Source: Promethearchaeum syntrophicum (GTDB lineage: Archaea > Asgardarchaeota > Lokiarchaeia > Sigyniarchaeales > Promethearchaeaceae). Taken from it: a stretch of 32,000 nucleotides of DNA. Below the pieces are notes generated by a model. The model ran no database searches. It worked only from the letters and a program-made list of their open reading frames with translations, and was not told the DNA's origin. Numbering within the stretch: position 1 is the stretch's first letter; the number at the start of each line of letters is the position of its first letter. A program made the translations under genes and the position numbers. Positions 13,418 through 30,491 of this stretch are shown in pieces. The stretch covers positions 900,001 through 932,000 of the forward strand of contig NZ_CP042905.2 in NCBI RefSeq assembly GCF_008000775.2. The letters are read 5' to 3'.

Positions 13418-14038
13418 ATGGTTAGTAAAAAGGATTTTTTTACCTATACCAAAATTATTTTTATATTAACAATATGTTTTGGTCTTATCGGAAACTATAT
13501 CTATGTTGAGAATTTTAAACCTCTTATAAGTAATTACAATTATCATGATGAGCCAATTAATTCTTTGTTTCATAAGCAATACGATGATTTTGTATTAGAA
13601 GGTGGTCATGAATATATTTTCTACTTTTTTTTAGAAGGACCCCATGATGTCTATCTTAATATAAATATGATATTTGAAACCATGGATAATATTACAATCT
13701 CTTATGGTACAGGCGTAAATGAATCCTGGTTGGAGTACTGGGGGGAAGATAGAATTTATACAGAACCATTATATATTCCCCAAAACGAAACAATTTTTAT
13801 TTCGGTACAAATGACAGCTCCCGGCACTAGTTATGGTAGTTCTCATTGGCAAATGCTTGTTTATCAAGATTTACCCATGTGGTTAACCAAACCTATACCC
13901 ATAATTGTTTTCTTTACTATCCTCTTGCTCGTAATTTGGGCGATTGCATATGAAAAATATGAAAAAATCTTTACCGATATTAAAAACCAAAAAAGAAAAT
14001 TAGTAGAAAAAACGGAGGAAGTAAGAAATGTCGAATGA
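13418..14038 (+). CDS. bitopic membrane protein A1 (N-terminal TM anchor, ~120-aa exposed domain with N-x-S/T sequons, C-terminal TM, charged tail)
   Basis: 206-aa ORF and a paralog of 14863..15483. The TM segments are IIFILTICFGLIGNYIYV and PIPIIVFFTILLLVIWAIAY. The sequons NIT, NES and NET are conserved in the paralog. A TATA-like atatatataata lies about 25 nt upstream of the ATG. Confidence 0.75.
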   Translation: MVSKKDFFTYTKIIFILTICFGLIGNYIYVENFKPLISNYNYHDEPINSLFHKQYDDFVLEGGHEYIFYFFLEGPHDVYLNINMIFETMDNITISYGTGVNESWLEYWGEDRIYTEPLYIPQNETIFISVQMTAPGTSYGSSHWQMLVYQDLPMWLTKPIPIIVFFTILLLVIWAIAYEKYEKIFTDIKNQKRKLVEKTEEVRNVE

Positions 14039-14862: not shown

Positions 14863-15483
14863 ATGGTTAGTAAAAAGGATTTTTTTGCTTATGCCAAAAA
14901 CATTTTTATATTAACAATTTGTTTTGGGCTTATAGGAAACTATATCTACGTTGAGAATTTTGAAACCCTTATAAGTAATTATAATTATCATGATGAGCCA
15001 CTGAATTCTTTGTTTCATTGGAATTACAACAATTTCGAATTAGAAGGTGGTCATGAATATAGATTCTTCTTTTTTTTTGAAGGACCGCAAGATGCCTATC
15101 TTCATATAGATATGATATTTGAAACCATGGACAATATAACATTCTCATACAATACAGGTGCAAATGAAACTTGGTTTGGGCAATGGGGGGAAAATACAAT
15201 TTATACAGAACCAATATACATTCCCCAAAATGAAACAATTTCTATTTCGGTAAACATAAATCCGGGCAGCATTAGTTCTAGTACTCTTCATTGGCAAATG
15301 CTGGTTTATCAAGATTTACCTATGTGGTTAACCAAACCCTTACCCATAATTGCTTTCTTTACTATTCTCCTGCTCGTAATTTGGGTGATTGCATATGAAC
15401 ACTATGAAAAAATCTTTACAAATATTAAAAACCAAAAAATAAAATTGATCGAAGAAACGGAGGAAGTTACAAATGTCGTATGA
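14863..15483 (+). CDS. bitopic membrane protein A2 (paralog of A1)
   Basis: Same length (206 aa) and same architecture, with 156/206 identical residues to A1. Confidence 0.75.
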   Translation: MVSKKDFFAYAKNIFILTICFGLIGNYIYVENFETLISNYNYHDEPLNSLFHWNYNNFELEGGHEYRFFFFFEGPQDAYLHIDMIFETMDNITFSYNTGANETWFGQWGENTIYTEPIYIPQNETISISVNINPGSISSSTLHWQMLVYQDLPMWLTKPLPIIAFFTILLLVIWVIAYEHYEKIFTNIKNQKIKLIEETEEVTNVV

Positions 15484-16286: not shown

Positions 16287-16943
16287 ATGAATAAGGAAAT
16301 ATGCATTATTTGGGATTGGAATGGCACATTAATTGATGATGTACACACCTCACTTGAGTGTATAAATATCATTTTAAAGAAACATCAATTAGCAACAATA
16401 AATCGAGAAAATTATCAACAAATTTTTACGTTTCCAGTTGAGCAGTACTATAGAAAGCTTGGGTTTGATTTTACAAAAATTTCTTTTGCGAAATTAGCGG
16501 ATGAATTTATCCATGAGTATAAAAAAAGAATGTTGGATGCGAAATTATATCCCAATGTGAAAGATGTTTTGGAACACCTGCAACAAATGGGTGTAAAACA
16601 ATTTGTAATTTCAGCTATGGAAATTGGAAAACTCAAGCTATGTATCGAAAATAAAGGTATATCACATTATTTTGAAGACATTTTGGGGTTGAATAATAAT
16701 TATGCTAATGGCAAAATGAGTTTAGTAAAAGAGTTCGCGAGACAAAGAAAGGATTTATTATATTCGAGTAATATTTGGATGATCGGCGATACTGAACATG
16801 ATTTTTACATAGCTAGTGAATTAAAATGGAATTCTATCCTGGTTTCCCAAGGCCATCACAGTTATTCAAGATTGAGTGCTGTTGGTAATATTGTGCTGAG
16901 AAATTTAAATGATATCAAGAAAATCTTTTCAAACATAATATAA
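16287..16943 (+). CDS. HAD-superfamily hydrolase (phosphoglycolate-phosphatase-like subfamily IA)
   Basis: The motif I region is ICIIWDWNGTLIDD. Motif II is VISA (S/T), and motif IV is the region MIGDTEHDFYIA (GDxxxD). The length of 218 aa fits a small cap domain. Confidence 0.8.
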   Translation: MNKEICIIWDWNGTLIDDVHTSLECINIILKKHQLATINRENYQQIFTFPVEQYYRKLGFDFTKISFAKLADEFIHEYKKRMLDAKLYPNVKDVLEHLQQMGVKQFVISAMEIGKLKLCIENKGISHYFEDILGLNNNYANGKMSLVKEFARQRKDLLYSSNIWMIGDTEHDFYIASELKWNSILVSQGHHSYSRLSAVGNIVLRNLNDIKKIFSNII

Positions 16944-25490: not shown

Positions 25491-26498
25491 GTGATTTCAA
25501 TGGTCTCGTTAATAATTGTAGGATTTGGAAACGTAGGACGCTCTTTAGCTGATATCATGCTTAAAGATCGTGAATATCTACATAAAACTTTTGGTTTTAA
25601 TTCTGAAATTAGGGCAATCTGTGAGTTGAAAGGAGCTTTAATTAATAAAAATGGTATTGATGTAGAAAATCTTTTAAAATTGAATGATATTTCTCAATCT
25701 TCTGATTGGGTACCCGATAAAACTGCATTAGATGTAGTTAAAGAAGTTGATGCAGACATTTTAGTGGAATGTAGCTGGGTAAATAAAGACACTGGGGAAC
25801 CTGCTGTTTCGACTTTAAAAGCAGCTATGAATCGAAAAATGCATATTGTTTCATCCAATAAAGGACCGTTCTATTTAAAATATAAAGAACTTAAGGAAGT
25901 AGCAGATAAGAATGAAGTCATGATGGGGATGGAGAGCACAGTTTTGAGTGCGGTTCCTGCATTAGCCGCTAAAACGACACTCGCTGGAACTCATATAAAA
26001 AGCATTCGGGGAATATTAAATGGAACATGCAATTACATCTTATCTCAGATGACTCAAAATGGCTCATCATTTGATGATGCTCTTAAGGAAGCTAAGGATT
26101 TAGGATATGCTGAAGCGGATCCAACACTTGATATAAATGGATATGATGCAGCAGGTAAAATTGTAATTCTTGCTAATGTTTTTCTTGGGTGGGATAAGAC
26201 AATTAAAGATGCTGATATTAAAGGAATTACAGAAGTGACAGCAGAAAAAATCGAACAAGCGAAAAAGGAGAATAAATACATCAAACATGTTTGTACTGCT
26301 AAAGATGGGAAGCTTACAGCTGGAACTGAATTGATCCCCATGGATTCTACTTTAGCAGTCATGGGTTCGCTTAATTTAGTTGAATTTGAAACTGTACATG
26401 CCGGGCCGTATACTTTTATTGGTCGTGGTGCAGGAGGTCCTGAAGCAGCTGCTGGGATTCTTTCCGATATTATCAATATTTCTCTCTTAAAATTCTAA
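25491..26498 (+). CDS. hom: homoserine dehydrogenase
   Basis: Motifs IVGFGNVGRS (NAD(P) binding), VSSNKGP, GILNGTCNYIL and LGYAEADPTLDINGYDAAGKIVILAN. The likely start is the ATG at 25500. T-runs follow the stop codon. Confidence 0.9.
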   Translation: MISMVSLIIVGFGNVGRSLADIMLKDREYLHKTFGFNSEIRAICELKGALINKNGIDVENLLKLNDISQSSDWVPDKTALDVVKEVDADILVECSWVNKDTGEPAVSTLKAAMNRKMHIVSSNKGPFYLKYKELKEVADKNEVMMGMESTVLSAVPALAAKTTLAGTHIKSIRGILNGTCNYILSQMTQNGSSFDDALKEAKDLGYAEADPTLDINGYDAAGKIVILANVFLGWDKTIKDADIKGITEVTAEKIEQAKKENKYIKHVCTAKDGKLTAGTELIPMDSTLAVMGSLNLVEFETVHAGPYTFIGRGAGGPEAAAGILSDIINISLLKF

Positions 26499-26699
26499 TT
26501 TTCAAGTTTTTTATTATATTTTTTTTTGAAGTTCCTTAAATTACGATTTTTTGCTTTATTTTGAAGAAGGTCATTTCTCCAACTCAACTCCTTCGCCATT
26601 TTCATCTTAAACATGATTTTTACTTATAGAAAAGGAAAGCTCTTTGAATTTGTGTAATTTTGGAATTCATACTTAGGAATCCATCACCAAAAGACTTTT

Positions 26700-27261
26700 T
26701 GGAGCACTTAGCACTCCGAAAGTATTAAATAATCTGCCGACAAAATAATAATTACCGCCAATCTACTCGTTGCAGGCGGATCCCAAGGGGACTGGAGAAC
26801 AATGTTCTTTTTATGTGACTCGGTTCGCCCGATCATATCGAAAAAAAATTTGTCATTCCTTTGCGTGAGATCCGAATTCCAAGACCATTCTTGGGATTTG
26901 AAGCTCGAGGTCACCCATCTTTCAAAGACTTTGGCTAACCTCCGTGAAAACTTACAGGGAAGATCCACAGAAAGCTTCTTTTCCAGGTGATCACGGGAGT
27001 GGTCATTTAATAAAATATTGTCACGCCTCACAGCATTGGATGCAGAGCCTTTTGGGATCTTTTTTGGCTTTGCATCCGCTTTGAGGGTCTGAACAGACCG
27101 TGTAAGGACCAATCCCTTGTGAGATCCGCGTGAAATGGTGTGATATTGGCGAAAATCCTTTCATTGGTAAAAAATCCGACCAAAAGAAAGAATTGAGAGC
27201 AATTGCAACGAACAATTGCTCTCGGTGATGGATTCAATCAACCTGAATCCAGTGAGTTACA
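26700..27261 (+). ncRNA. candidate structured non-coding RNA (bridge-RNA-like) in the IS110 left end
   Basis: There is no credible ORF on the transposase strand. Two perfect adjacent hairpins lie just upstream of the ATG: gagagcaattg/caattgctctc (27195-27205 / 27213-27223, 11 bp, 7-nt loop) and tggattca/tgaatcca (27229-27236 / 27244-27251, 8 bp, 7-nt loop). A weaker ccgcc/ggcgg stem lies at 26755-26779. The extent and the RNA identity are not established. Confidence 0.25.
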
Positions 27262-28797
27262 ATGAGTCATAATCCCTCAAAAAGCTTTAGGAAAAAAACA
27301 ACCCGTCGAAAATCCAGGAGAAGTTCTCAAGGATCTACTTCATCTGGTGCTGAAATTGAAATTGTCCGATATGGGGTCGGCTTAGATGTTCATAAGGAGA
27401 ACATTGTGGTGAGTGTCGCGGCCCAAACTGAGCAAAACTTGATTATTCAAATTCGAACCCATAAATTTCGAAATCAACCTCAAGGATTGCAGGAATTAAC
27501 CCAGTTCTTACAGAAATATCTTCCCGTTTCCCATTATTTAATGGAATGCACAGGCATATATCATCGACCTGTATATCACGCCTTGGAAGATGCATTTCCG
27601 AATTCAAAGACGAAAATTATTGCAATGAATCCATTATTGGTCCACCGTAAATTGACCGATTTGGGAAACAAACATGATAAAGCAGATGCTCAAGGCATGG
27701 CAGAACTTAGCTTCTACGATCGATTAATACGACCAAGTTATATCGGTACTCCCGAGTTTTTCCATTTGCGGGATACTCTGCGAAATTACAAGCATGCAAA
27801 GAAAGCAGCTAATAAATACGTGAATCGTATTCATCGAGTATTATGCAGTGTCAATTTCATGCATAAACTTAATCTTCATCATGAATGGGAATTACACTTG
27901 CTCGATTTTATGATTACAACTGAAGGTCCGATGAAACGGGCATTTAAAGCAATGGTAGAATCATCTCAGTTAGAAAAGCGATCAATCAGCAGCTTGATGA
28001 AACATCAAGATGATTATGTGCCTTATTTTAACATAGAACTTCCCAAAACTTCTCGGTTCAACTTGCGACAATTAGTCATCCAATATCTCCAAGCAGAAAC
28101 AAATGCTGCCCAATATTTATTGCAAACCGAAAAACAAATTCTTAAGGATGCTGAATTCGAATATTGGTACCTCCAACTTCTCCGAATTCCCTGTGTAGGG
28201 CAAGTTTCCGCCTTGCGTTTAATTACTGAATTAGGGGATTTTCGACGGTTTGTCAATTGGAAGGCTTTTGCTAAATATTGCGGAGTAGTTCCTGAAATAA
28301 AGGAAAGTGGAGGAACATTTACTCCCGGTCATATCAATCGGTTTACTAATACTCATCTTCGGACCGCCTTATCACAAATTGCCATGTTATATGTCAACGG
28401 TTATGCCAAGGGAAGCGACTTAGCTAAATTTGCTCATCGCCAGTATGTTTTAAGAGGACTTCCTTACAAGAAAGCCGTGATGCGAGTGGCTCAAAAACTC
28501 AGTCGCATTATATATCAAGTCCTAGTAAATAATGTTTCCTATGATGCGACTTTTGAACAAACCAAGGCGAAAATACAGCGATTGCAGCGCCGAAATACCA
28601 AACACGGTACAATGTTAGAATTTCCCCAAACTCGCAGTCTCCGTCGTGATATATCTCAACTTTTGGTTACCAACTCACAATATATGACCTCCAAAAGTCG
28701 CTTCTTCTTGATAAAGGGTTTCCAACAATTGATACGGAAGGCAAATGTAGTGGAACTGCAAGGGACTAAGGTGGATTCAAAAAAAAATAAGATTTAG
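27262..28797 (+). CDS. IS110-family transposase/recombinase (DEDD RuvC-like domain plus C-terminal Tnp domain)
   Basis: Motifs YGVGLDVHKENIVV (first Asp), LMECTGIYHRP (Glu), NKHDKADAQ, and C-terminal FAKYCGVVPEIKESGG (conserved Ser region) with NTHLRTAL. A basic ~35-aa N-terminal extension makes the protein long (511 aa) for this family. Confidence 0.88.
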   Translation: MSHNPSKSFRKKTTRRKSRRSSQGSTSSGAEIEIVRYGVGLDVHKENIVVSVAAQTEQNLIIQIRTHKFRNQPQGLQELTQFLQKYLPVSHYLMECTGIYHRPVYHALEDAFPNSKTKIIAMNPLLVHRKLTDLGNKHDKADAQGMAELSFYDRLIRPSYIGTPEFFHLRDTLRNYKHAKKAANKYVNRIHRVLCSVNFMHKLNLHHEWELHLLDFMITTEGPMKRAFKAMVESSQLEKRSISSLMKHQDDYVPYFNIELPKTSRFNLRQLVIQYLQAETNAAQYLLQTEKQILKDAEFEYWYLQLLRIPCVGQVSALRLITELGDFRRFVNWKAFAKYCGVVPEIKESGGTFTPGHINRFTNTHLRTALSQIAMLYVNGYAKGSDLAKFAHRQYVLRGLPYKKAVMRVAQKLSRIIYQVLVNNVSYDATFEQTKAKIQRLQRRNTKHGTMLEFPQTRSLRRDISQLLVTNSQYMTSKSRFFLIKGFQQLIRKANVVELQGTKVDSKKNKI

Positions 28798-28805
28798 TCT
28801 TTAAT

Positions 28806-28822
28806 GGGGGTCAACGACCCCC
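28806..28822 (+). terminator. perfect GC hairpin followed by T-runs at the IS right end
   Basis: gggggtc-aac-gaccccc (7 bp, 3-nt loop) lies 9 nt after the transposase stop and is followed by ttttttttc ttttttt. It could be a terminator or a right-end recombination structure. Confidence 0.4.
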
Positions 28823-28867
28823 AGGCTAAATTTTTTTTCTTTTTTTCCAAATAGTCACATTTTTTCT

Positions 28868-29584
28868 CTAAAAATTTAACAGATAGGGAATTATCGAATA
28901 CCCGGTCCAGAATAATGGAAGTAAATTCAATAGAAAATGGGGGATGAACGTGTAAATCATTTCATTTCCTTTTCGCCATACTACCAAATGTAGAAATCCA
29001 GAAATTGTAGTGAGTAGGATAAAAATAACTCCAATTAGCATAGATGAATCTACTGTATGAAGAAAATTGACCCAGTACATGGTGTGGATGGTTCCTACAA
29101 AGACCGAAAATAGAATCAGACCGATAAACCGAAATACCCAGTTTTTCTTTTTGTTCTCTTCAGTCCAAGGAAGATATAAATCCCATGATTCAAATAGATA
29201 GATCCAGAGAAGTTGTTCAGAAGCTGCATTAATTGTAGCCCAAACTAGTGCAGTTAAAATAATTCCTGATGTGTTTGGGTGTACATTTACAATTCGTGCA
29301 AAGTAAGCACAAATTAAGCTCATAAGGATAACTCCCACATTCATCAAGAAAGCTTTTGGATACTTAGTTTTTGGATTATTAAAATAACCAGTTGATCCAC
29401 GACGCCATTTACAAATTCCCCACGCTAATCCATAATAGAGAACCATAGGGATTAAAGCCCCAGTTTTCAAATATAGAAATTGGGCAATAAGGGGAAATAT
29501 AATTGAAATCACTGATGAGAGTCCTAAATCCAATGGTGTCGGTTTCCATGTCTTTATCATGATTAGATAAACGGAAAGAATCAT
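28868..29584 (-). CDS. polytopic membrane protein, weakly CPBP (CAAX-protease)-like
   Basis: 238 aa with about 7 TM segments. Possible degenerate CPBP motifs are ASEQLLW (for EExxxR), GTIHTMYW and IPHFLLN (HxxxN). The assignment is tentative. Confidence 0.55.
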   Translation of the reverse strand: MILSVYLIMIKTWKPTPLDLGLSSVISIIFPLIAQFLYLKTGALIPMVLYYGLAWGICKWRRGSTGYFNNPKTKYPKAFLMNVGVILMSLICAYFARIVNVHPNTSGIILTALVWATINAASEQLLWIYLFESWDLYLPWTEENKKKNWVFRFIGLILFSVFVGTIHTMYWVNFLHTVDSSMLIGVIFILLTTISGFLHLVVWRKGNEMIYTFIPHFLLNLLPLFWTGYSIIPYLLNF

Positions 29585-29729: not shown

Positions 29730-30491
29730 ATGAAAATAGTATCTTGGAATGTAAATGGGATAAATTCTTCATTAAAAAACAATTTAATCCCAATTCTCAA
29801 TAATTTGAATGCAGATATCATTTGCCTACAGGAAATTAAGGTATCAGAAAAAACAATCGATCCTCAAATAAAGGAGCTTTCAATTAATTATAAACAATAT
29901 TGGAACCAAGCAGAACGTAAAGGATACAGCGGTGTTATGACATTATCGAAAAAAAAACCTATTTCGGTAAAATTCGGTTCAGAAAATAATATTTTTGATA
30001 ATGAAGGACGATTAATTACCCTAGAATTCGATAATTTTTTTTTAATGAACGCATACATTCCAAATTCTGGGCGTGGATTACCTCGTTTACCTTTTAAACT
30101 AAAGTACAATAAAAATTTAATCAAATATATGAATACATTAAAAAAGAAAAAACATGTAATCCTATGTGGAGACCTTAATGTAGCTCATAAAGAAATTGAT
30201 ATAAAAAATCCAAAAACAAATAAAAAAAATGCTGGATTTACCCAAGAAGAAAGAGATTCTTTCAGTGAACTCCTAAATGAAGGTTATATAGATACATTCC
30301 GTGAATTTACAAAGGATGGGGGGCATTATACCTGGTGGAGTTACAGAAATAATGCCAGAGAAAGAAATATTGGATGGAGATTAGACTATTTTGTTATCGA
30401 TGAAAAATTCCTACCCAATTTAAAAAGTAGTGAAATTTTGCCAGATTTATTGGGGTCCGATCATTGCCCTATTGAATTAGTCATAAAATAG
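29730..30491 (+). CDS. xth: exodeoxyribonuclease III (Xth/APE1-family AP endonuclease)
   Basis: Motifs MKIVSWNVNGI, ICLQEIK, GYSGV, CGDLNVAH, NAGFTQEER, WWSYRNNARERNIGWRLDYF and GSDHCPIEL. Confidence 0.93.
   Translation: MKIVSWNVNGINSSLKNNLIPILNNLNADIICLQEIKVSEKTIDPQIKELSINYKQYWNQAERKGYSGVMTLSKKKPISVKFGSENNIFDNEGRLITLEFDNFFLMNAYIPNSGRGLPRLPFKLKYNKNLIKYMNTLKKKKHVILCGDLNVAHKEIDIKNPKTNKKNAGFTQEERDSFSELLNEGYIDTFREFTKDGGHYTWWSYRNNARERNIGWRLDYFVIDEKFLPNLKSSEILPDLLGSDHCPIELVIK

Follow-up and report, generated by a model that had tools for sequence, protein, structure and literature searches.

The stretch of Promethearchaeum syntrophicum DNA analyzed here (contig NZ_CP042905.2, positions 900,001 to 932,000 of the forward strand; 32,000 nucleotides, hereafter the window, whose numbering is used throughout) carries an IS110-family element of about 2.33 kb at 26507..28838 (+). 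We consider it highly probable that this element is an Asgard-clade IS110 copy whose guide is encoded in its non-coding left end (LE), as in bacterial IS110 elements. The reading draws on a conserved, covarying RNA fold in the LE and on segments of that RNA that match the junctions of the element and change with them from lineage to lineage. In a full-text search of the literature collection available, no description of this element was found.

The 511-aa protein is an IS110-family recombinase

The element contains one long conserved gene:

27262-28797 (+), IS110-family recombinase, 511 aa, with residues D42, E95, D139, D142 and S349

A preliminary description of this DNA, made from the letters alone, had recognized the DEDD and serine-containing Tnp signatures of IS110 transposases, and profile searches bore this out. 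PF01548 (DEDD_Tnp_IS110) matched residues 39-196 (1.6e-17) and PF02371 (Transposase_20) residues 306-377 (6e-16), whilst the NCBIfam equivalog NF033542, 'IS110 family RNA-guided transposase', scored 185 bits at a cut-off of 140; homologous proteins are named "IS110 family RNA-guided transposase" by NCBI. phmmer matched the protein to IS621 (8wt6) and ISCro4 (9t56) with the catalytic residues aligned, D42, E95, D139, D142 and S349 falling on D11, E60, D102, D105 and S241 of IS621, the roles of which are known (PMC11208158). Among 54 homologues D42, E95 and D139 are invariant, and D142 and S349 are conserved in at least 90%. The column of S349, the predicted nucleophile, holds Thr in two members (P0010 and P0040).

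An AlphaFold model built from the 54 homologues (pLDDT, the predicted local distance difference test, 85.5) had IS621 and ISCro4 as its best structural matches (8wt9, 8wt6 and 9t56; E about 1e-13). The template modelling (TM) score was 0.81-0.84 when normalised to the target (0.83 for IS621) and about 0.53 when normalised to the query, because the query is larger. The remark in the preliminary description that the recombinase is unusually long and has a basic N-terminal extension was correct: the published range is 300-460 aa. A conserved basic tail, disordered in the model, lies at the N-terminus; the helical linker covers residues ~150-295, compared with 115-189 in IS621, and is thus about 70 aa longer; and a conserved helical extension of ~80 aa follows at the C-terminus. 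By every protein test, the 511-aa ORF (open reading frame) is a true homologue of the IS110/bridge recombinases.

Independent copies define the element and an Asgard clade

We compared the window by blastn with the independent copies L011, L012, L013 and L022. Homology ran from 26507/8 to 28845/6 and the flanks were unrelated; unrelated flanks were seen in at least five independent copies and in three more from the Candidatus Lokiarchaeum ossiferum genome. These comparisons place the ends at about 26508/26513 and 28830/28838, give an LE of ~750 nt and an element of ~2.33 kb, and so move the left boundary away from 26700, where the preliminary description had put it (with a left end of ~560 nt and a total of ~2.1 kb). 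That start was misplaced because the first ~180 nt of the LE are AT-rich, and 26700 is where G+C rises. G+C is 0.37-0.45 over 26600-28850 and 0.26-0.36 in the flanks; the foreign composition claimed earlier therefore holds as a real shift, but a modest one.

The right end (RE) is 33 nt plus a T-run: it closes with GGCTAAA (28824-28830), followed by an oligo-T run of a length that varies among copies. The terminal features are as follows:

26507..26512 (+), left-junction oligo-T (T6), 8 nt past the hom stop codon
26517..26530 (+), left subterminal inverted repeat (STIR-L), TATTTTTTTTTGAA, the inverted counterpart of 28776-28789 (14 bp, perfect)
28776..28789 (+), right subterminal inverted repeat (STIR-R), TTCAAAAAAAAATA, within the last codons of the ORF
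28794..28830 (+), right-end stem-loop, TTAGTC-TTTAAT-GGGGGTCAACGACCCCC-A-GGCTAA, then A (28830)
28831..28839 (+), right-junction T8C (core plus right target), which with the hairpin resembles a terminator

The STIR equivalents of other lineages are 10-16 bp long and covary (permutation P=0.0004). The right-end stem-loop is conserved in all lineages, with compensatory changes in loop and stem.

At the left junction the T-run counts 5, 6, 7 or 8 T in four copies with the same or nearly the same element. At the right junction L013 has T8C and L014 has T9A, although the encoded proteins are identical, so that this run must be at least partly target-derived. Because the lengths vary between copies of the same element at both junctions, the crossover lies inside the T-run; each end is consequently uncertain by a few T. 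The left T6 is probably a remnant of the target T-tract plus core. Two copies from different samples, L012 and L022, have the left flank and the element in common and diverge in their right flanks after AAATTTTTCTTTT; the L012 contig includes a run of N, and the divergence may reflect a chimeric assembly or a T/C-rich tract that varies. The 41%-identical relative L007 (CAYPTZ010000103) has the LE terminus TTTCGTGATATTTTTTACAATA twice in tandem at its left junction (L007:3204-3250).

The Asgard origin suspected in the preliminary description was confirmed by the relatives, which come from Candidatus Lokiarchaeum ossiferum and from Promethearchaeota metagenome-assembled genomes (MAGs). The closest proteins, 91, 89 and 84% identical, are on short metagenome contigs. 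The complete genome of L. ossiferum holds at least three copies (CP104013, at about 3.94, 4.33 and 5.98 Mb), 99.6-99.7% identical and of the same layout, with proteins 57-60% identical to the window recombinase, and the layout (~2.3 kb, LE of 700-750 nt, very short RE) recurs in more Promethearchaeota MAG and metagenome copies. Judged from these sequences, the recombinase belongs to an Asgard (Lokiarchaeia/Promethearchaeota) clade of ~500-aa proteins with ~700-750-nt LEs, and the many metagenome contigs of 2.2-2.8 kb would be collapsed copies of the element. A metagenome scan with a 20-nt invariant motif gave one true copy, L022. Three further hits, L019-L021, showed no element or transposase homology and were discarded, two of them lying in unrelated genes and the third at a contig end with unrelated ORFs alongside. 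A scan of viral contigs gave no match.

The left end contains a conserved, covarying RNA domain

Every clade member examined, from 91% down to 41% protein identity, has a homologous non-coding LE of 700-750 nt; in none was it the few tens of nucleotides that would have made the region host DNA. In an alignment of 11-14 lineages the LE shows two stretches inward of its terminal features:

26531..26685 (+), AT-rich leader of the LE, with little conservation beyond the closest copies
26686..27256 (+), conserved structured non-coding RNA domain, ~570 nt

Conservation over these final ~570 nt exceeds that of the protein, with invariant sequence blocks in elements of 41-58% protein identity. Blocks such as AAATATTGTCACGCCTYACA, CTGGAGAACAAT, TTTGTCAT and CATCTTTCA..GACTTTGG are invariant among elements with 55-60% identical proteins, and their order is kept in the 41%-identical member.

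For the window RNA (26690-27261) the folding energy is -195 kcal/mol (z = -6.66). The RNAalifold consensus has 78 pairs, 29 of them changed on both sides. Counted over the alignment, 94.2% of cells pair, as against 83.5 +/- 0.6% with partners shuffled (0/500 shuffles reached the observed value), and pairing falls to 34-48% when partners are slid by 1-3 columns. Many pairs alternate between G-C and G-U, so the structure fits the + strand only. The two perfect back-to-back hairpins singled out in the preliminary description are exactly where it placed them: GAGAGCAATTG/CAATTGCTCTC at 27195-27223, in which 7 of the 12 pairs covary in relatives, and TGGATTCA/TGAATCCA at 27229-27251, 10 nt from the ATG, which covaries as well. 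The main elements of the fold are:

26794..26858 (+), target-binding-loop-like hairpin: basal stem 26794-26802/26850-26858, internal loop, apical hairpin 26814-26837 (RNAalifold helices 4 and 5)
26867..26906 (+), hairpin between the two loops, the best-covarying one (helix 7, 11/11 pairs changed on both sides)
26907..27022 (+), donor-binding-loop-like domain: 5' strand 26913-26932, stem 26933-36/27001-04, variable apical hairpin 26937-27000, 3' strand 27005-27019
27027..27256 (+), 3' domain, closed by CUCAC (27027-31)/GUGAG (27252-56), as seen in helices 10, 14 and 15 and in folds computed lineage by lineage
within the 3' domain (+), U-rich-loop hairpin 27038-27077, invariant GGGUCUGAACAGACC at 27085-27099, and two hairpins at 27194-27224 and 27229-27251

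A predicted two-loop core (26794-27022) of ~230-240 nt, a length that by itself falls in the published span of 150-250 nt for bridge RNAs, is thus embedded in ~570 nt of conserved structure, the extra length being ~100 nt of conserved upstream RNA, the inter-loop hairpin and the ~230-nt 3' domain. GUGAG (27252-56) is a Shine-Dalgarno-like GGUGA/AGUGA sequence 5-10 nt before the ATG, and it is reasonable to suppose from the fold that the 3' domain sequesters the ribosome-binding site. A 17-nt inverted repeat (26677-93/27219-35) was set aside as it is not conserved in distant lineages.

We considered whether the LE might instead hide a small protein gene. ORFs do exist there: a 134-aa antisense TTG frame, of the kind mentioned in the preliminary description, and also a 62-aa ATG frame on the + strand (26802-26990), so that its long ORFs are not, as had been stated, antisense only; in the L. 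ossiferum LE a 79-aa gene has been annotated. Across lineages no LE ORF on either strand keeps its boundaries, open frames shifting through all six frames, which marks the LE as non-coding. The 134-aa frame, moreover, has no Pfam match, and it is broken up or missing in L011, L013, L022 and the L. ossiferum group. A protein-coding LE is accordingly scarcely credible. The 79-aa call (L023:1021-1260, CP104013) is probably a spurious one on the guide-RNA region, because LE ORFs are not conserved.

RNA segments covary with the element junctions

The IS110-group bridge RNAs described for IS621 served as our reference (Durrant et al., 2024, PMC11208160; Hiraizumi et al., 2024, PMC11208158). In these RNAs the target loop precedes the donor loop, and the left-target guide (LTG), right-target guide (RTG) and right-donor guide (RDG) are defined (PMC11208160); once strands have been exchanged, the handshake guides that adjoin the RTG and RDG base-pair with the top strands of donor and target (PMC11208158). 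We scanned every alignment column for exact matches, in sense and complement, to the left and right junctions of the same element, with the junctions of other lineages as control, and assessed the matches by shuffling the assignment of RNAs to junctions among ten lineage representatives. Four RNA segments stood out, each in a constant register; they are listed here together with the LE terminus:

26803..26813 (+), target loop 5' side (LTG-like), UGUUCUUUUUA, identical to the left-junction top strand
26838..26851 (+), target loop 3' side (RTG-like plus handshake-like), UCGAAAAAAAAUUU, complementary to the right junction (28828-28839)
26924..26930 (+), donor loop 5' side, AAAGACU, complementary to AGTCTTT at 28796-28802, about 30 nt (28-34) inside the RE
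27005..27019 (+), donor loop 3' side (RDG-like), AUUUAAUAAAAUAUU, whose core UAAUAAAA (27008-27015) is complementary to the LE terminus
26509..26516 (+), the LE terminus itself, TTTTATTA, candidate right-donor (RD) site for RNA 27008-27015

The complementarity between loops and target or donor that the preliminary description had proposed to look for is thus present, and it covaries between lineages. The target loop 3' side matches 10-12 nt of the right junction in five covarying states (AAAT8C, AAAT5CT, AAACT6CT, AAACT8 and AAAT7CT), RNA and DNA changing in step as to how long the T-run is and where the following C stands (permutation P<0.0001). For the 5' side, matches to the left junction are TTCCTTTA in L017 (8 nt), AATAATTTC in L007 (9 nt), CTTTTTTT in L025 (8 nt) and 8/9 in L004 (P=0.0003). 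The four states of the LE terminus (TTTTATTA, TTTAATTA, TTTAATTG and ATTTCGTG) are all matched by the RDG-like segment (P=0.0001); in L016 and L003 this match runs on past the terminus into flanking bases, reaching 11 and 10 nt. Equivalents of 26924-26930 match all four covarying states of the RE site, AGTCTTT, AGTCCCT, AGTCCAT and ATCTCT (P=0.0001).

In side, polarity and order, 26803-13 and 26838-51 agree with a target-binding loop, and the run of the second match into the last RE bases looks like a handshake. The segment 27008-27015 likewise agrees in side and polarity with an RDG, at times with a handshake-like extension. By three of four guide criteria, the interpretation of the LE RNA as a bridge RNA is supported at the sequence level, and its loop polarity and 5'-to-3' order are those of IS621 (PMC11208160, PMC11208158).

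Could a long LE simply comprise a promoter and a structured 5' untranslated region (UTR) that controls recombinase expression, with junction matches arising from A/T-rich composition? The CUCAC/GUGAG helix covers the Shine-Dalgarno-like sequence and two stable hairpins adjoin it, as such a UTR would have. The LE tip TTTATTATAT (TTTAATTATATA in relatives), which overlaps the RD site, resembles an archaeal TATA box and may be one; targets and guides are oligo-T and oligo-A. Composition, however, does not explain cognate-specific covariation: non-cognate pairs score lower, and states such as ATTTCGTG in L007 and T-runs of 5, 6, 7 and 8 followed by C are matched in register. The LE tip also lies upstream of a transcript started from its own TATA box, so pairing there cannot be a UTR fold, whilst a 3' domain with a regulatory role could coexist with a guide core. 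We therefore regard the UTR explanation as very unlikely.

It is just as hard to credit, and to our mind a shade harder, that the covarying LE and RE sequences are DNA repeats bound by the recombinase rather than RNA guides. A true 10-16-bp subterminal inverted repeat is present, the element-internal RDG-like and RE-complementary matches formally amount to inverted repeats, and co-inherited sites of one protein could covary. Such repeats leave unexplained the matches derived from the flanks (TTCC in L017, AATAA in L007, C or CT after the right T-run). In addition, the segments lie on opposite sides of covarying internal loops of an RNA with + strand G-U pairs, and the solved relatives of the recombinase recognize DNA through RNA (PMC11208158).

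More room must be given to an RNA-RNA contact, in which 26924-26930/28796-28802 and 26838-26851/28828-28839 would join the 5' part of the transcript to the 3' UTR of the recombinase mRNA, although we judge this unlikely too. In each case the strand complemented is the sense (top) one, the same as the mRNA; AGUCUUU has its first bases in the stop codon, and the other site corresponds to the U-run of the terminator. The C or CT after the T-run, on the other hand, is at least partly target-derived (L013 vs L014) and lies beyond the likely termination point, and the matches to LE terminus and left flank are not covered. The contact could hold for 28796-28802 alone, with the rest being guide-to-DNA pairing; on sequence grounds this pair may be either RNA-DNA donor recognition or a 5'/3' UTR contact. 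The DNA site 28796-28802 begins inside the recombinase stop codon.

Other candidate segments were examined and dropped. GGCTAA at 26933-26938, tried as a left-donor guide (LDG), is confined to the window lineage. In several lineages the LE tip has a near-complement in an A/T-rich segment (26742-26756), which gave no cognate-specific signal. The hairpin GGAUGCA...UGCAUCC (27038-27077) encloses a U-rich loop (27048-27067) that is identical to T-rich junction or flank sequence in L024 (10 nt), L017 (9 nt) and L025 (11 nt); its overall cognate score of 6.7 against 6.3 for non-cognate pairs gave no clear signal, and the loop could be an extra guide or a decoy. In L. ossiferum the target loop 5' side AAUUGUUAAUUUUU is identical at 13 of 14 positions to the start of its own LE, AATTGTTTATTTTT (L002:3275-3290; A1 columns 219-236), a likeness that may be chance in A/T-rich sequence or a hint of self-targeting.

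The element inserts at oligo-T tracts behind co-oriented genes

A long co-oriented ORF ends 3-64 nt upstream of the element in 10/10 informative left junctions, and the orientation of the element is always that of this upstream gene, which in the window is hom. Several right flanks contain the 3' end of a convergent gene. In the related MAG L026, whose Hom is 88% identical, hom is followed by a T9 run and, after 36 nt in total, by an exoIII-like gene, the counterpart of which is at 29730 in the window. The ORF ends upstream of the copies and the T9 run behind hom in L026 together identify the target as an oligo-T tract directly behind a gene. Archaeal terminators usually take the form of such a tract, and the targeted oligo-T tracts are probably terminators.

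The preliminary description had the element between hom and a membrane-protein gene. The position is right, between hom (25491-26498) and a 238-aa gene (28868-29584, -), in which no Pfam match was found. This gene is missing from the syntenic hom-exoIII interval of the related MAG (L026:4499-4540), and it is also absent beside all other copies of the element; because of these two absences it is taken as a separate gain or loss that adjoins the insertion. The flanks of the window element in joined form read:

window flanks around the element (+), ...TCTAATTTTCAAG T(n) CTTTTTTTCCAAATAGTCAC...

Elsewhere in the window, two 206-aa ORFs at 13418-14038 (+) and 14863-15483 (+) are 76% identical paralogues with hydrophobic N- and C-terminal segments, spaced by ~1.4 kb; a third ORF of 218 aa (16287-16943, +) follows at the same spacing.

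A candidate mechanism

Several findings weigh against a bridge RNA and limit how far the model can be pressed. A canonical LDG (RNA identical to the last RE bases plus core) was found in none of the lineages, k-mer scans of whole LEs against RE termini giving lineage-specific or T-run matches only. In the window and its three closest relatives the LTG-like match is the T-run only (TTTTTAT, 7 nt, in the window), and the 4 nt upstream of the T-run never match. The basal helices of both guide loops are invariant and without covariation support. An Rfam scan of 26000-29500 at a permissive threshold yielded chance-level matches only (E at least 5.5), Rfam 15 being a release that may not hold a bridge-RNA family. 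No locus turned up that is an exact empty site at which the core dinucleotide and the precise crossover point could be read; L026, the best in synteny, is imprecise because the window carries the extra 238-aa gene there. Guides and targets, finally, are all A/T-rich and of low complexity, so that match lengths overstate significance, and the permutation test ignores phylogeny in a sample of only ~10 mutually related lineages. Its statistic, however, is complementarity, not association, and flank-derived matches cannot be co-inherited with the element.

Weighing these points, we favor a guide RNA and propose the following scheme. Transcription of the LE would run along the + strand, with the TATA-like box at the tip as its probable promoter, and would yield the predicted guide RNA. 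A core of ~240 nt, which we place at 26794-27022, would carry two guide loops in the IS621 order. In the target loop, the 5' side would correspond to left target plus core, and the 3' side would be complementary to core plus right target and continue, handshake-like, into the last RE bases. In the donor loop, the 3' side would pair with the LE terminus, and the 5' side would contact a site ~30 nt into the RE in place of the terminal left-donor bases. With its DEDD and Ser residues the recombinase would use this RNA to join a circular donor junction to oligo-T tracts just past the stop codons of co-oriented genes, as would have happened for the window copy 8 nt after hom. The ~100 nt of upstream RNA and the ~230-nt 3' domain would be additions of this clade, probably serving as scaffold or in translational control.

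To our knowledge, the bridge RNAs characterized so far belong to bacterial elements and are ~180-nt RNAs with 320-340-aa recombinases. If the scheme is correct, the bridge mechanism extends to Asgard archaea, where both its RNA and its protein lie far beyond the size ranges published so far, and the clade offers natural variants of donor recognition, subterminal repeats and guide scaffold compared with IS621. The oligo-T terminators behind genes would then serve as a target that is also a safe harbour, where the element stays co-transcribed with a host gene. The clade would also provide material for the proposed link between IS110 recombinases and the Nop-domain ribonucleoproteins (RNPs) of archaea and eukaryotes. 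For annotation, the ~750 nt upstream of such transposase genes in Asgard MAGs should be treated as part of the element and not as host intergenic DNA or small ORFs.

Comparison with known systems

The Asgard element shares with IS621 a recombinase of the same fold with DEDD (RuvC-like) and Ser (Tnp) residues, and with IS621 and the IS110 group a long LE, a short RE and an RNA region in the LE upstream of the ORF. As in IS621, there would be two loops, the first target-binding and the second donor-binding; the 5' side of the target loop equals the left-target top strand, and complementarity continues across the junction in the manner of the handshake guides. Like the IS110 group, it has no terminal inverted repeats and its insertion is site-selective.

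It differs from IS621 in the size of both partners. The recombinase has 511 aa instead of 326, with the basic N-terminal tail, the longer helical linker and the C-terminal helical extension, and the ~750-nt LE has a conserved RNA of ~570 nt instead of 150-250 nt, with an extra inter-loop hairpin and a 3' domain of ~230 nt. Unlike IS621, it shows no canonical LDG; what the donor loop 5' side complements instead is a top-strand site ~30 nt into the RE. Its targets are oligo-T tracts behind stop codons and not repetitive extragenic palindromic (REP) elements, and, the host being an archaeon, any promoter would be of the TATA/BRE (B recognition element) type and not a sigma-70 one.

Long STIRs are a trait of the IS1111 group, those of the IS110 group having 2-3 bp (PMC11208160). 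With 10-16 bp, the Asgard STIRs depart from the IS110 group and resemble those of the IS1111 group and its seekRNA systems (7-17 bp in the literature). A further resemblance is that donor-binding nucleotides placed in multi-loops, not in simple internal loops, have been reported (PMC11208160). IS1111 elements, in contrast, have a short LE, a long RE and the RNA downstream of the ORF, whereas the Asgard element has its RNA upstream of the ORF and an RE of 33 nt plus the T-run. Since it combines a long LE and short RE with long STIRs, the clade mixes traits of the IS110 and IS1111 groups. We tentatively suggest, aware that the idea may well prove wrong, that it represents a third architectural class of IS110 elements. 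Such a class would be defined by this combination and by a ~570-nt guide RNA that reads the donor in three places (the LE terminus, an RE-internal site by a conserved hairpin, and the junction T-run), by homing to terminator oligo-T behind co-oriented genes, and by a 3' domain that couples guide folding to recombinase translation. No archaea are closer to eukaryotes than the Asgard hosts, and a relationship of IS110 recombinases to Nop5/Prp31 has been proposed; for these reasons the extra RNA and protein domains could, in the same tentative proposal, recruit host RNP factors.

The last comparison is with the archaeal box C/D small RNP (Nop5-L7Ae-fibrillarin), which has its guides in internal loops, as the Asgard RNA would. 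Nop56/58 structures were distant fold matches of our recombinase model, a likeness already published for IS110 recombinases (10.1101/2024.06.21.599552). Unlike a box C/D RNA, the LE alignment inspected by eye has no conserved C or D box or kink-turn (K-turn) signature: GUGAUGG (27225-27231) is not conserved, and a CUGA in an invariant hairpin lacks a partner C box. Unlike the protein of such an RNP, the recombinase has kept its active site intact, which identifies it as a transposase and not a domesticated scaffold.

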